Source: a virus. Taken from it: a stretch of 14,446 nucleotides of DNA. Position 1 is the stretch's first letter. Each line of letters starts with the position of its first letter. Location of the stretch: UHGV virus genome UHGV-1642993. One strand, written 5' to 3'. Below are positions 9,917-14,147 of this stretch, piece by piece. Under the pieces are notes generated by a model. The model had not been told where the DNA came from. It made no database searches and saw only the letters and a list, made by a program, of their open reading frames with translations. The position numbers were made by a program, and so were the translations under genes.

Positions 9917-11409
9917 CCAACTCCGCAAGGTATGTTGTAGCTTGAGTAATCAATCTCTTTAGGATCTTTGATGTCTCGCATCTGTATTGCAAAACGCCTC
10001 ATCATGTAGCCATAGCGAACAGCAGAAAGGATGTCGTCATTTAGCTTGACGATCTTCCCGTTCTCATCGCGGTGATACAGACGAAACTCTTCAAAGAATG
10101 GCTCGCAGGTGTTAAATACCTTGAAACGACCGTCGAGCATCATGTCGCGTATCTCTGCTATCCCGGGTTCGACCGCATTACCTCCATCAGGCCATGTTGC
10201 ATGATCTGGCAACATGTCGAACCCAGCTTCGGCGTATTGTTCCTTGAGCTGAGCGCCGCCTCCCTTTTCGTGCTGATGCCCGTCATGAGGCCAAGCCGTA
10301 GGGGTGTTTTTGCTCCATGCTTTAACAGCACTCCATGCCTCTGTCGCCTTCTTCTGTTTGGCCTTCCAGACGCGAGAAAGATAAATCACGTCCTCGTCTT
10401 TATCCCACCAAAGCTGGATATGTGCCTGTGGGTGATCCCATCCGAAGTCCATTGCATTGATGACGTAGAAGTGATCAGGACACTCGAACGGCTGACACTT
10501 AATCGTCTCTTCCGGTATCTGGAAGATTCGACCGCTACCCATCGTAGGAATACCGCGAGCACGCGCCTCTCTCTCGTGCTCGGGATAGGATGCGATGATT
10601 TGCTCTTTCTGCTCGTCGGTATAGTGCTCAGCATCATAGATGGTCATGTTGACCACTTTCTGCGACTTGCTGGGATTCTTCAGGAACTTGGTAACAACGT
10701 CAGACATCCCCATCAGCGGGGTAAACGTCAGAATTGAGAATTGCCCGTATTTGTTGGTACGGGTAAGACCTTCGCCATAAATGCTGTATGGTGGCTCTTC
10801 GTCAAACCACACGCCGTGGATTGTGTCACCCTGCCAGCGAGCACGGCCTTGAGAGTATGGTTTGAAGTAGCAGATTGAAATGCCATCTTCAACGCCATCA
10901 GCCGTGTGATGCTTAACCAGAAGATGATCAACAAGGTTCGGAAAGAAAGGAGACTTCTTCCAGCTAATGATGTCCTCTTTCGGTATGGAACCGTAGCCAG
11001 GCTCGTCATTCTCTTCGATACGACCGCACAGGATGCGTTGAGTCGTTTTGGTTACAGTCTCGTTTGTCTCGCCACCAATCCAAAAGACAACAGGCTCATA
11101 GAAACGCTTACCTTTCCACTCACCGCCATATTTACCATCAGCAGGATAGCCTTTTGTGCCCGGATAACGCCCTGTAAGGTGAAACGCGACTTCAGCAGCA
11201 CCAGTAAATGACTTACCAAGCTGGTTACCAGCCATAAAACATCGCTCTGGATAGTCATGTCCGGCGTCGATGAACTCACGCTGTTTGCTGTATGGCGTAA
11301 ATTCATATAGCAGGTGTGTGTTCCGGTAGTTCTCTTCTTCTTCGAGTAGCTCGAGCAATTCGATTTGCTCTTCGTCGCTCAGGTTATCAAGAATCGCGTC
11401 CAGTTCCAC
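9913..11409 (-). CDS. terL: Terminase large subunit, P22 gp2-type (498 aa)
   Basis: N-terminus [37 protein letters not shown] and Walker A segment AGNQLGKS match P22 gp2 as recalled; GTG start at 11409 with AAGGAG upstream; overlaps terS by 23 nt. Confidence 0.95.
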
Positions 11410-11881
11410 GGTTGAATAGCTCCTTGATACGAGAGCGCCGCTTATCGCGATCTCCCTTATCAGGTGTCACGTCTTCAACTTGCGACTGCTCTTTGAGGCC
11501 CAAATCACGGGCGATGATGTTAGCGTTGAGAAGGTCAGCGGCTGCGCCAGAGAATTTCTGATCGTAGATGATGTCTTCCGCTCGTGATGTGACGTCAGAA
11601 AAACCTTCCATTGACCGGAAGGTTCCCCATGTTTGCCTGGTGATATCAAGGAAGGTACACAATCCTGAAATAGTCATGGCTCGCATCTTAGGGACATTAG
11701 CCTTAATTATTTCTCCCTGATATGAAAATACCTTGCCCTCCCATAGCGGGTTATCATCAGCCCACTCGAAGTATTCACAACAAGCAGCCCACAGCGCCTC
11801 AGGCGATTCGAATTTAGGGTTTCGCCCATGACTACTGCGGGCCTCCCAAAATCGGTTGCCCTTTGGTGCTGCCATATCCAT
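11387..11881 (-). CDS. terS: Terminase small subunit, P22 gp3-type (162-164 aa)
   Basis: [38 protein letters not shown]... and C-terminal [56 protein letters not shown] match P22 gp3 as recalled; two candidate ATGs (11881, 11875). Confidence 0.9.
11587..11608 (-). other. Candidate pac (packaging initiation) site inside terS, diverged from the P22 pac sequence
   Basis: Minus-strand GAAGGTTTTTCTGACGTCACAT (encoding EGFSDVTS) occupies the position where P22 gene 3 carries its pac site (recalled as GAAGATTTATCTGAAGTCGTTA, encoding EDLSEVV); 14 of 22 positions match. Contains the palindrome TGACGTCA. Confidence 0.4.
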
Positions 11882-11910
11882 CTCACTTATTTGTTATTTC
11901 AGGTTGAGCA

Positions 11911-12153
11911 TCATGCTCCGGTGGTGAACAGGTCTAACGCTTCCTTCGATTTACGTACCGCTTCGATAGTGCGGGTCGTGATATCTGAATTAGCGCCGCC
12001 TGACTGGAAGTGAATTTTGAATAGCTCAAGCTTCAACTCGTCAGTACCAATGAACTGAAATGCTTCCTCTGCGGCTGCGTTCTGGTTCATGACCAGTTTG
12101 TAAATCTCTAACTGGAATTTCTGTTCTTCAGTCATGGGAATAATCTCTGCCAT
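11911..12153 (-). CDS. Small hypothetical protein (80 aa) directly upstream of terS
   Basis: ATG at 12153 with GGAG 8 nt upstream; predicted helical, acidic; same position as the small conserved ORFs that precede gene 3 in P22-like phages. Confidence 0.5.
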   Translation of the reverse strand: MAEIIPMTEEQKFQLEIYKLVMNQNAAAEEAFQFIGTDELKLELFKIHFQSGGANSDITTRTIEAVRKSKEALDLFTTGA

Positions 12154-12256
12154 TGTTGGCTCCGTTTATCCGTTAAAAGGGATATCAGTTAAGTTATCCC
12201 GTGTAGGGTATAAGCCATTATCAAAGCCACTCTGTAGGGAATGGCTTTTGTAATAA

Positions 12257-12514
12257 CTACTTCGTTTTTGCTTCCGCTCTTTTACGGCGGCGCTCTTCTT
12301 TCTTCTCGGCGTTTGCCATGTCCATGAATGCCTGCATGATCGAGTTCCTCATCATGTAACTGACAAAGTGATGATTGACGCAGCCGTTGAGACGGAGTTG
12401 CTCGCCAAACTGATCAACCGAGGCCAGCACTTGCATCATGTCCTTCTCACCTTTCATGAACTCAGAGAAGTCGCGCCCCGCTCTGGAAGCGCATTCAATG
12501 ACGCGATTATTCAT
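12257..12514 (-). CDS. Small hypothetical protein (85 aa) with a basic C-terminal tail (KKEERRRKRAEAKTK)
   Basis: ATG at 12514 overlaps the upstream TGA stop (ATGA coupling); no recognisable domain. Confidence 0.45.
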   Translation of the reverse strand: MNNRVIECASRAGRDFSEFMKGEKDMMQVLASVDQFGEQLRLNGCVNHHFVSYMMRNSIMQAFMDMANAEKKEERRRKRAEAKTK

Positions 12515-13062
12515 CCTGGAAGCCCTGGGATCGTAATCTGCAGCTGGTTAGCCAGGGTATTAATCTCAGCGACCAATACAGGCTTCGTATAACGCCATGC
12601 AGCAAGTCCTTGTCCGCAGAAGCTCGCCATGTCCTTCTTCTGGTCAAACTCATGGCACTTCATGTTGAGCTGCGCACTTAAGCTGTTGCGATGCTGAAGC
12701 TCTCCGGTGAAGTAGTCATCGAGGACCTTATATGCCGCGTACTTGAAACCGGGGTTTAACCAGGCAGCATAATCGTAAGCAACAAACTTCCCGCCATAGG
12801 TTCCGCCGTGTACGCCGCGGGCAGTAAAAACCACAGATTCGTGGTTTTTCTCCAGCTCGGCCAGGAACTCTTTGGTCTGCTTGTTTCGCAGATAGTGGTA
12901 AGGCGATTCAGCATCACTTTTGCCACTGGCTTTCCACATATCGGTGAGGCAGATCATGCCGTCTTCTCCGACACGGATTGGTTGATTGAAGAGGGTTAAT
13001 GATTTCATTTCGCTGATACCTTTTGGTGGTTGAGCCTGTTCTCGTAGATATGGGCAGCCCAA
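12511..13062 (-). CDS. KilA-N-like domain protein (183 aa from TTG at 13062; 165 aa from the internal ATG at 13008)
   Basis: N-terminal segment IRVGEDGMICLTDMWKASGKSD....YLRNKQTKEFLAEL fits the KilA-N DNA-binding pattern as I recall it; first ORF after the lysis-cassette terminator. Confidence 0.5.
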   Translation of the reverse strand: MGCPYLREQAQPPKGISEMKSLTLFNQPIRVGEDGMICLTDMWKASGKSDAESPYHYLRNKQTKEFLAELEKNHESVVFTARGVHGGTYGGKFVAYDYAAWLNPGFKYAAYKVLDDYFTGELQHRNSLSAQLNMKCHEFDQKKDMASFCGQGLAAWRYTKPVLVAEINTLANQLQITIPGLPG

Positions 13063-13157
13063 GAGCGGTCAGCGTTACCACTGCCCTATCTCAAGCTCTA
13101 CCCCGAAAGGCTCTTGGTTGATATGCGCACGAGAATGCGCGGGTTTACTGCAGGCGT

Positions 13158-13181
13158 AAAAAAGCCCCGCTATTGCGAGGC
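13158..13181 (-). terminator. Intrinsic terminator at the end of the lysis cassette, overlapping the Rz1 stop codon
   Basis: Minus-strand transcript: GCCUCGC-AAUA-GCGGGGC (7-bp stem including one G-U pair; the Rz1 UAG stop lies in the loop) followed by UUUUUU. Confidence 0.5.
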
Positions 13182-13493
13182 TCTTGATGATTCGATTTTC
13201 CTGATTGCTGCCTTATCCAGATTGCACTGCCCTAGCGCCGTATAGAGCTGAGCGTTCAACTCCAGACTTGCCTGCCACGTGAACGGAACCGCCATTCCGG
13301 GGATCGGCGTGTCTGCTGTCAGGTCAGCGCTTATCGGCACCACCGGGGCCGGAACGTAAACTGTTTTCGTATTCCCGCAGGCTGTCAGCAGCGGCAGAAG
13401 GAACAAGCTGGTTAGCACACGGATCGCCTTCAAGCGCCTGCCTGATGTAGACAATGCGCGTCTCGCCTTTTTTGGCCAGTTCGTTCTTTGCAT
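13170..13493 (-). CDS. Rz1: Rz1-like o-spanin (outer-membrane lipoprotein), in the +1 frame overlapping the 3' part of Rz
   Basis: Lipobox LLPLLTAC followed by a Pro-rich mature region (VYVPAPVVPISADLTADTPIPGMAVPF). The ORF's ATG at 13493 would give a 39-residue leader; an in-frame TTG at 13433-13431 gives a typical 19-residue lipoprotein signal (MKAIRVLTSLFLLPLLTAC). Confidence 0.7.
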   Translation of the reverse strand: MQRTNWPKKARRALSTSGRRLKAIRVLTSLFLLPLLTACGNTKTVYVPAPVVPISADLTADTPIPGMAVPFTWQASLELNAQLYTALGQCNLDKAAIRKIESSRASQ

Positions 13494-13710
13494 TCTGGGT
13501 AGCCTGTGAGATGTCGCGGATGAGGTTCATCGTGGTGATCACGTTTCTGGTGATCGCCTCCGATGTGTCTGCCCTGACCGTCGCCTTATCGCGCTGGTCT
13601 TTGTAGGTGATGGCGTTGTCGCGGTAGTGGTTTACGAATAAAACCAGCACGCCGATTAACGCCAGCACCAGCAACTGTAGCCAGTAACGCTTAACCAGCG
13701 CGCCAATCAC
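13324..13710 (-). CDS. Rz: Rz-like i-spanin (128 aa)
   Basis: N-terminal signal-anchor TMD (WLQLLVLALIGVLVLFV) then a charged periplasmic helical domain; GTG start overlaps the lysozyme TGA stop (GTGA); directly downstream of the lysozyme gene. Confidence 0.75.
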   Translation of the reverse strand: MIGALVKRYWLQLLVLALIGVLVLFVNHYRDNAITYKDQRDKATVRADTSEAITRNVITTMNLIRDISQATQNAKNELAKKGETRIVYIRQALEGDPCANQLVPSAAADSLREYENSLRSGPGGADKR

Positions 13711-14147
13711 GACAGGAACAGAGCGCGCTCCGCCTCACGCCGACGGGTCAGCCCATTCAGGACCTTGCCACCTGCTTTATTCCAGCGCAGGAACTCATCG
13801 GCTGCGCCAGCGTAATCACCGGCGTTGAGTTTTCGCAGGAGAGTCGATGTCGATAAAGATCGGGCTCCGAGGTTATAGGTGAACGACACCAGGGCGTCGA
13901 ATTGCCCCTGAGTCAGACCAACTTTAACCAGGCGAGACACGTCGCTTTCGTAGCTGACAAGTCCGGTCTTCAACAGGCGCTCTGCCGTTTCCTGATTAAT
14001 TGTCATACCGGCACGGATCGGTTTACCGTCGACAGGCTGAGTCCAGCCATAGCCAATCGTCCACACTCCGACGCTGTCCTGGTACGCGGTAAGCTTGCAG
14101 CCTTCGAACTCTTTGATCAGGGCAATGCCTTTATCACTGGTTTGCAT
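13707..14147 (-). CDS. Endolysin, T4-type lysozyme (glycoside hydrolase family 24), P22 gp19-like (146 aa)
   Basis: Catalytic-region pattern LIKEFEGCKLTAYQDSVGVWTIGYG (Glu, Asp, Thr triad spacing) and C-terminal RRREAERALFLS match the P22 lysozyme as recalled; SD (GGGGA) before ATG; overlaps the holin stop by 14 nt. Confidence 0.9.
   Translation of the reverse strand: MQTSDKGIALIKEFEGCKLTAYQDSVGVWTIGYGWTQPVDGKPIRAGMTINQETAERLLKTGLVSYESDVSRLVKVGLTQGQFDALVSFTYNLGARSLSTSTLLRKLNAGDYAGAADEFLRWNKAGGKVLNGLTRRREAERALFLS

Follow-up and report, generated by a model that had tools for sequence, protein, structure and literature searches.

In phage HK620, the genes hkbK, hkbL and hkbM lie in this order between the lysis gene Rz and the small terminase gene (Clark et al. 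2001; NC_002730), and the corresponding slot of P22 holds rha (orf201), orf25, pid, orf80 and orf59c. Here, we analysed this slot in the UHGV virus genome UHGV-1642993, a stretch of 14,446 nucleotides (nt) that is referred to as the window and to whose full length all coordinates relate; every gene in this part of it is encoded on the minus strand. The window DNA matches hkbK-hkbL-hkbM of HK620 with the same gene order, and the proteins are 95% (HkbK), 91% (HkbL, residues 1-66) and 100% (HkbM, here Orf80) identical. Moreover, both loci share the ATGA coupling between hkbK and hkbL, a structured leader upstream of hkbK and a hairpin 3′ of hkbL, termed hairpin A. HK620 differs by an insert of ~250 nt with an orf25-like open reading frame (ORF) between two copies of hairpin A, by hkbN and by another small terminase type, whereas the window has one hairpin, no hkbN, a terminase of the P22 gp3 type and a different lysis cassette. 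With P22, the window shares orf80 and the leader, which there precedes rha, and P22 Rha resembles HkbK in position and in its C-terminal ORF11CD3 domain. In contrast, the N-terminus of Rha is Phage_pRha and not KilA-N, hkbL is missing, and the pid moron on the opposite strand occupies the place of the hairpin units that follow hairpin A in the window. Downstream of Rz in HK97, HK022, mEp and Stx phages, the terminator, leader, KilA-N gene, hkbL and hairpin A are arranged as in the window; HK97-like phages differ in that the KilA-N protein ends in a P63C domain, packaging genes of the HNH/cos type come next, and a 28-codon remnant is left of orf80.

A preliminary description of the window had grouped the three ORFs into one accessory cluster between an upstream terminator and a structured intergenic region (12154-12256). 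All these elements are present on the minus strand, and the junction between lysis and packaging genes is variable as it had been described, since P22, HK620, Sf6, epsilon34, SPN9CC and the window all differ there. The grouping itself did not survive the comparison of loci. We consider it likely that this stretch is a mosaic of two ordinary, widespread lambdoid late-operon accessory modules and no single novel cargo cluster. To compare gene neighbourhoods, 98 loci encoding a relative of HkbL, 80 of them viral, were collected and re-annotated by tblastn. In all 98, hkbL stands directly 3′ of a gene of the KilA/Rha/Ant class, with an ATGA overlap or a gap of a few bases. The upstream gene mostly encodes a KilA-N+ORF11CD3 protein, in HK97/HK022-like and Klebsiella phages a KilA-N+P63C protein, and in a Rouxiella prophage a Phage_pRha+ANT protein, where the pair belongs to an immI-like Arc/Ant region next to the tailspike gene. 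In the Klebsiella phages the pair is found among tail genes, and the head and packaging genes downstream of hkbK-hkbL vary widely between loci. About 90% of the loci have hkbK-hkbL without orf80, and a full gene with the orf80 domain DUF2560 lies nearby in just 4 of the 80 viral loci, while two more keep its first 28 codons. Conversely, orf80 occurs without hkbKL in P22 (rha-orf25-pid-orf80-orf59c-3), Sf6 (65-66-67-68), epsilon34 (67-68-69-70-Dec) and SPN9CC, where a Rha-type gene is followed by DUF2560, Dec and gp3. Because hkbL always trails a KilA/Rha-type gene and orf80 occurs without hkbKL, two modules are distinguished: judged by gene order, hkbK and hkbL form a cassette of two genes that is portable, and orf80 is the constant gene ahead of P22-like packaging genes.

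All three ORFs are, on comparative grounds, real and selected genes, already catalogued since the genome papers on HK620, P22 and Sf6: the changes between homologues are mostly synonymous (ratio of nonsynonymous to synonymous substitution rates, dN/dS, 0-0.1), and they are therefore regarded as genuine. Some part of the 1.7-kb region is matched by 2639 of 5426 complete E. coli genomes. The statement that none of the three proteins is recognisable has to be withdrawn, as profiles assign KilA-N and ORF11CD3, phrog_875 and DUF2560 with E = 1e-13 to 1e-51, in line with the identities of 91-100% to the HK620 proteins. Profile searches for ordinary ORFs of the P22 slot gave a divided answer. Orf80 is the P22 Orf80 (98.8% identity), which refutes its novelty; HkbK and HkbL are ordinary conserved proteins of HK620, HK97 and Stx phages, yet they have distinct domains.

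In line with its description as KilA-N-like, HkbK matches KilA-N (PF04383) with 55.8 bits (cut-off 23.8; E = 4.7e-15; residues 28-119 of the 183-amino-acid (aa) ORF). It further matches ORF11CD3 (PF10549) with 50.3 bits (cut-off 25; E = 2.9e-13) and phrog_129, annotated as 'transcriptional regulator' (3.9e-60). Over its last 68 aa, the protein shares 35% identity with the end of P22 Rha (E = 1e-8), and this similarity extends to the terminal IPGL. P22 Rha consists of Phage_pRha and ORF11CD3, the latter scoring 96.7 bits, and the Pfam search gave no match to Phage_pRha (PF09669) in HkbK, whose N-terminal domain is KilA-N. Based on the ORF11CD3 tail match and the domain composition of P22 Rha, HkbK is the counterpart of Rha by position, leader and C-terminal domain, with a swapped putative N-terminal DNA-binding domain, and not a member of the Rha family. 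A sequence search of the PDB with HkbK yielded nothing meaningful. The comparison of hkbK homologues gave a dN/dS of ~0.07. The cluster had been delimited to 11911-13062; the ORFs within this span are real, but its end at the KilA-N gene lies 54 nt too far upstream. The true start of hkbK is almost certainly the ATG at 13008, predicting a protein of 165 aa rather than 183, since AAAGG precedes this codon, the homologues in HK620, RefSeq and metagenome gene calls are 165 aa long throughout, and the 54 nt between 13062 and this ATG fall inside the conserved non-coding structured leader. As stated in a passage of PMC4936722 that rests on Mozola & Friedman and Henthorn & Friedman 1995, Rha is a late-operon product of P22 and phi80 that stops phage growth without IHF, and rha is regulated by IHF. 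Such harm to phage growth makes it plausible that genes of this class have to be tightly controlled. Hints of an antirepressor function come solely from gene context, in the Rouxiella prophage mentioned above and in SPN3UB, where a KilA-N gene behind the leader adjoins Arc/Ant genes.

The start of hkbL overlaps the hkbK stop codon by ATGA. HkbL was correctly described as having a strongly basic tail (isoelectric point (pI) 9.4; KKEERRRKRAEAKTK), and it matches phrog_875 over profile positions 1-85 of 85 (E = 8.6e-51). Over residues 1-66 the identity of ~91% holds for the proteins of Stx phages, HK97, HK022 and mEp phages as well. The exact sequence is present in 263 blocks of a public assembly collection, and the family is very small, since a set of 1.84 billion proteins holds just 22 representatives of it at 50% identity; the dN/dS between homologues is ~0.09. 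The AlphaFold2 (AF2) model (predicted local distance difference test, pLDDT, 92.8) consists of helices 3-20, 26-42 and 48-84, the last of which runs into the basic tail. Among homologues, C45 never varies and C8, H48 and H49 hardly do, and these four residues could form a metal site. Over ~65 N-terminal residues, HkbL is 34% identical to the beginning of epsilon34 gp68 (E = 5e-12), the rest of which is a T5orf172/MUG113 domain, and the same fusion of an HkbL-like with a T5orf172 domain is found in two distant relatives (P0223, P0226). Because of these three fusion proteins, the HkbL domain appears to be a module of the KilA/Bro/T5orf172 domain-shuffling network. The epsilon34 gene 68 (L100 1768-2253) stands directly behind the same leader RNA that is found upstream of hkbK.

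The ~250 nt upstream of hkbK were aligned for 31 distinct loci. The similarity begins at the terminator, whichever lysis or tail gene precedes, and spans an element of ~112 nt that ends about 22 nt ahead of the hkbK start codon. Four helices can be drawn in this leader: H1 (GCGCA/UGCGC), P0, formed between UUCUCG in the loop of H1 and CGAGAA ~95 nt further 3′, P1 (CCAAGAGC/GCUCUUGG), and PK, in which GGGCAG in the loop of P1 pairs with CUGCCC just 3′ of P1. Consequently, H1 crosses P0 and P1 crosses PK. A candidate fifth helix, P5, shares sequence with P1a; it reads GAGCCU/AGGCUC or GAACCU/AGGUUC, one of its pairs covaries, and it may belong to an alternative fold.

A covariance model, R1, was constructed solely from sequences of the window type and the Klebsiella type with P0 and P1 as structure. 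It scores 146.6 bits at the window leader, and its further matches precede KilA-N+ORF11CD3 genes that belong to other sequence types, the KilA-N+P63C genes of HK97 and Klebsiella loci, P22 rha and epsilon34 gene 68. BLAST adds copies at the SPN3UB KilA-N gene and at the Rha gene of an Erwinia phage. None of the BLAST-matched records containing the leader annotates it as RNA. In the model-derived alignment, double changes occur in all 6 pairs of P0 and in 7 of the 8 pairs of P1, each helix being 92.7% paired, and the whole structure is 87% paired versus at most 54% with slid partners. Moreover, when each 5′ segment was paired either with its own 3′ segment or with that of another type, the own helices were longer for P0 (6.25 versus 4.32 bp), P1 (7.0 versus 4.9) and PK (6.75 versus 4.67). 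In the hand register, all PK partners are complementary (GGGCAG/CUGCCC, GGACGG/CUGUCC, GGGCGG/CCGUCC, GCCGU/GCGGC, GCCGU/ACGGC, ACCAG/CUGGU, GUCAG/CUGAU, GUCAG/CUGAC and CCGGC/GCCGG). The minimum free energy of the leader is significant for the sense strand (z = -3.3) and not for the antisense strand (z = -0.6). Covariance model and own-versus-cross test were used because two other approaches were inadequate: MAFFT with RNAalifold missed the long-range helices, as the types are out of register, and a naive scan for the longest helix was not significant alone, shuffled sequences giving 6-bp helices ~70% of the time.

On this basis we tentatively propose that the leader represents an undescribed class of cis-regulatory RNA that would gate genes of the Rha/KilA-N antirepressor class in enterobacterial temperate phages and possibly switch to the P5 fold. 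That such a class would span late operons as well as immI-like regions, from P22, HK97, HK022, HK620 and epsilon34 to Stx phages, is conceivable, if somewhat short of an even chance. In P22 the leader (about 39506-39621 of NC_002371.2; L003 2007-2122) overlaps the annotated N-terminal extension of Rha with its GTG start (VLASLGGLVSCAAKVHFKEEGNA...), and because of this overlap the annotated start of rha is probably wrong, the true one being an ATG 23 codons downstream (MNELIANH...); if the leader class is real, this follows, since the annotated gene runs through the element. A second, shorter copy of the leader (27-31 bits; L052/L053 4369-4461), without an upstream terminator, lies ~1.1 kb downstream of hkbL ahead of a gene whose 257-aa product has fn3 and tail-tip-fibre domains.

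A described RNA to compare is c4. In the immI region of P1 and P7, the c4 antisense RNA controls icd-ant (Rfam C4, RF01695). By analogy, the leader would likewise be a structured RNA directly upstream of an antirepressor-class gene, with two short complementarities between a loop and a downstream segment that seem type-specific yet matched. P0 and PK could work like c4 of P1 and provide specificity between phages. Unlike c4, the leader gives no match to Rfam C4 at E <= 1, its complementary segments come in another order, and its pairings fit an intramolecular fold with crossing helices. A scan of 11300-13800 against Rfam 15 at E <= 1, including C4, ribozymes and riboswitches, returned solely chance-level matches to RsmY and mir-598, both off the leader.

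The second RNA element concerns the 3′ end of the cassette. The 103-nt intergenic region 12154-12256 folds with -35 kcal/mol (z = -4.5 versus shuffles), and directly after the hkbL stop codon 84 of the 98 loci have hairpin A, CAUUAca-AAGCCCA-loop-UGGGCUU-ga-UAAUG; the similarity between loci stops right after GATAATG. Among 22 variants, 96% of the cells are paired, as compared to 83% in shuffles and at most 49% with slid partners, and compensatory double changes are found in 8 of 14 pairs. Wobble pairs are G-U on the late-sense strand only. The covariation and this strand limitation of the wobble argue for a hairpin that is formed at the level of the RNA. It carries no annotation in the HK620 record. 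In the window, hairpin A and the next 62 nt are identical to the intergenic region between genes 66 and 67 of Sf6, and hkbL is 100% identical to copies in Enterobacter and E. coli prophages with unrelated head genes; hairpin A is therefore taken as the joint at which the two modules recombined.

The insert of ~250 nt with a small orf25-like ORF (MAKKILCGGGLMERHRLLQRPF...) between two copies of hairpin A occurs in HK620 (L001 3246-3598), epsilon34 (L100 2254-2500), P22 (L003 2682-2870) and others, and the window and Sf6 show the 'empty' form with one hairpin. It looks like the insert was gained or lost by recombination between the hairpin A copies. In P22, the oppositely oriented pid moron replaces the two UAUCCC-loop-GGGAUAA units of the window. 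Units of this type, with conserved stem and variable loop, follow hairpin A before differing genes in other loci, and their arms are able to cross-pair (GGGAUA...UAUCCC, then UUUU). They could represent a protein-binding repeat or an attenuator-like arrangement. Three further explanations were rejected: hairpin A is not the terminator of the P22 pid moron, which has its own terminator (AAAAAAGCCGCTTACTTAGCGGCTT, late strand) within the insert; GATAAT after hairpin A is not a -10 box, since it pairs with CATTA as the 3′ arm of the outer stem and has no suitable -35 element; and the TTATCC/GGATAA units match a DnaA box or IHF site inconsistently across loci.

At the 5′ edge, the predicted intrinsic terminator comprises GCCUCGC-AAUA-GCGGGGC followed by U6, that is, a 7-bp stem with a 4-nt loop that contains the Rz1 stop codon; the wider stem-loop of 10-11 pairs has -18.2 kcal/mol (z = -3.0). 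In 13 of 14 copies examined, the leader is preceded at a distance of 15-25 nt by a terminator whose stem changes but still pairs, irrespective of the upstream gene, and this terminator forms the conserved 5′ boundary of the cassette. The RsmY-like Rfam match noted above (13161-13269, minus strand, 18 bits versus a gathering threshold of 57) extends over the Rz1 end and this terminator, and was judged a terminator-driven chance artefact. No sigma-70-like promoter was found on the minus strand in 11300-13800. A moron in the sense of Juhala et al. 2000 is said to be a gene with its own promoter and terminator; at hkbK-hkbL no promoter-like site was found, the terminator stands upstream and not downstream, and hairpin A has no U-tract.

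Taken together, module 1 (13181-12216) is a self-contained cassette consisting of terminator, leader, hkbK, hkbL and the 3′ hairpin A, and module 2 is orf80, encoding a strongly conserved, acidic, predicted four-helix protein before the packaging genes. For their working, the following scheme can be envisaged. The cassette would be transcribed within the Q-antiterminated late operon, and HK620 and P22 have the pR'-qut-tR' arrangement upstream. The terminator at Rz1 would stop unmodified polymerase and be passed by Q-modified polymerase. The leader, in a knotted or an alternative fold, might then set translation of hkbK-hkbL or processing of the message and so keep a potentially harmful regulator of the Rha/KilA type low, and HkbL would be produced through translational coupling to hkbK. 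HkbK and HkbL may act as a DNA-binding regulator of the Rha/Ant class with a small helical partner, the interaction of the two being presumed. Hairpin A would stabilise or delimit the message and at the same time provide an exchange point for modules.

Several points weigh against this interpretation. The leader does not obviously occlude the Shine-Dalgarno sequence, and one weak copy precedes a tail-tip-like gene. Since P0 and P1 are part of the alignment model, the pair counts lean toward the structure, and with ~10-12 sequence types the independent compensatory events are few. PK is out of register in the model-derived alignment (67% paired), and its support comes mainly from registering the segments by hand and from the comparison of own with cross-type partners. 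As hairpin A has no U-tract, it is not a canonical terminator. Furthermore, the literature searched contains no functional study of DUF2560, hkbK/L/M, orf80 or the KilA-N gene in this slot.

A purely DNA-level explanation has also to be weighed, according to which leader and hairpin A have no RNA function and are boundary sequences conserved for homologous recombination, be it as palindromes of the DNA or as remnants of terminators. Homology between loci breaks exactly at the GATAATG end, and the insert of HK620, epsilon34 and P22 is flanked by two hairpin A copies, which would fit this explanation. Short conserved boundary sequences at lambdoid module junctions were proposed by Clark et al. 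2001, as cited in PMC3029335, and boundary-sequence features are annotated in the Sf6 record. Recombination, however, needs sequence identity, whereas both elements keep pairing while their sequence changes. Moreover, wobble pairs in hairpin A are tolerated on the transcribed late strand only, and significant folding of the leader is limited to its sense strand. We therefore regard this explanation as unlikely and prefer an RNA-level role of leader and hairpin A.

The second module is defined by Orf80, which matches DUF2560 (PF10834) over profile positions 1-72 of 72 (147.7 bits, cut-off 25; E = 1.1e-43). In addition to HkbM of HK620, it is 100% identical to Sf6 gp67, CUS-3 HkbM and epsilon34 gp69. 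As described from the sequence, the protein is acidic and helical (pI 4.7; AF2 four-helix model with a pLDDT of 78.6). Comparisons of homologues revealed 7-12 synonymous versus 0-1 nonsynonymous differences (dN/dS 0-0.03). The fixed place before the packaging genes and the near-invariance suggest a conserved late function, which is possibly linked to packaging. In HK97 (L004 2501-2584), HK022, HK75 and mEp phages, the first 28 codons (92-96% identical) remain downstream of hkbL just ahead of the HNH/cos region, which marks a mosaic joint inside the coding sequence.

A stronger form of this idea gives Orf80 an auxiliary role in packaging the DNA or assembling the head, instead of regarding orf80 as a free-standing accessory gene. 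The gene is always upstream of P22-like packaging genes, in the window directly before the small terminase gene and elsewhere separated by just one or two small genes (orf59c/hkbN, gp70, Dec), and it is under extreme purifying selection. Yet orf80 co-occurs with differing terminase types, for example HK620 gene 3 versus P22 gp3, the fold search is uninformative, and the HK97-like phages retain the first 28 codons only. To our knowledge, the interval from gene 15 to gene 3 contains no gene that classical P22 genetics identified as essential, which likewise speaks against this role. We give it little chance and retain orf80 as an accessory module of its own.

For the hkbK-hkbL cassette, one could also think of a toxin/antidote-like pair, that is, a harmful KilA-type protein, in the manner of P1 KilA or the Rha phenotype, with a small co-translated neutraliser, serving abortive infection or phage exclusion. 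The strict adjacency and ATGA coupling of the small protein to KilA/Rha-type genes throughout the 98 loci would fit, as would the inhibition of phage growth by Rha without IHF and the limited expression suggested by the upstream terminator and the structured leader. On the other hand, P22 rha and several more genes stand behind the leader without hkbL, and epsilon34 has the HkbL domain joined to T5orf172 and not paired with a KilA protein. In addition, no promoter-like site on the minus strand for expression from a prophage and no match to known defence systems were found, and such a pair appears improbable. Among the database searches, PADLOC gave no match for HkbL and Orf80 and, for the KilA-N region, a partial match to PDC-S22 with 31.6 bits, NCBIfam no assignment for the cluster proteins, and fold searches generic helical bundles only; the papers on the evolution of epsilon34 and Sf6 do not discuss these genes. 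Finally, joint action of the three genes as one cargo cluster in host takeover, anti-defence or regulation is likewise improbable, for although the slot is hypervariable across P22-like phages, holds in P22 the pid moron that reprogrammes the host dgo operon, and encodes here small proteins without assigned function, with a weak match of KilA-N to the candidate defence family PDC-S22, hkbKL and orf80 are distributed independently of each other, phages from three host genera share a nearly unchanged orf80, in contrast to fast-evolving counter-defence genes, and the two small proteins have no PADLOC or NCBIfam assignment. Apart from that weak KilA-N-level match in PADLOC, no support was found for the anti-defence or host-takeover role considered in the preliminary description.

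As genes, the members of this slot thus offer little that is new, being ordinary lambdoid genes already known. What goes beyond the existing annotation is the anatomy of the modules and the covarying hairpin at their joint; the most important addition is the candidate leader RNA, which is common to KilA-N/Rha-type genes and also precedes P22 rha. Two modules with a defined joint indicate which genes are to be treated together, namely hkbK with hkbL, and orf80 alone. HkbK is tied to the old, still unexplained Rha phenotype of P22 and phi80. Leader and boundary hairpin, in turn, could explain how potentially harmful late genes are restrained and how modules are exchanged at fixed points.

The features of the region are compiled in Table 1. 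The small terminase gene forms the downstream edge of the slot and is followed by the large terminase gene.

Table 1. Genes and predicted RNA elements in and around the slot between lysis and packaging genes of UHGV-1642993
Feature	Coordinates	Strand	Remarks
holin	14439-14134	minus	
endolysin	14147-13707	minus	
Rz	13710-13324	minus	
Rz1	end at 13170	minus	
predicted intrinsic terminator	13158-13181	minus	overlaps Rz1 stop codon
candidate structured leader RNA	13031-13142	minus	crossing helices H1, P0, P1, PK; candidate P5
hkbK	12511-13008	minus	mechanical ORF 13062-12511, 183 aa, TTG start
hkbL	12257-12514	minus	85 aa, profile match phrog_875
boundary hairpin A	12216-12256	minus	CAUUAca-AAGCCA...UGGCUU-ga-UAAUG, 3′ of hkbL
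two UAUCCC-loop-GGGAUAA units	12154-12215	minus	followed by the orf80 ribosome binding site GGAG
orf80/hkbM	11911-12153	minus	80 aa, Pfam DUF2560
small terminase, P22 gp3 type	11387-11881	minus	Pfam GP3_package 8.6e-31, phrog_606 1.3e-71

Between orf80 and the small terminase gene, 29 nt (11882-11910) remain with no gene between them, and the small gene that P22 (orf59c), HK620 (hkbN) and Sf6 (gene 68) have at this place is missing. The same compact arrangement of orf80 and terminase as in the window is found in the E. coli prophage PK8241 (L007).

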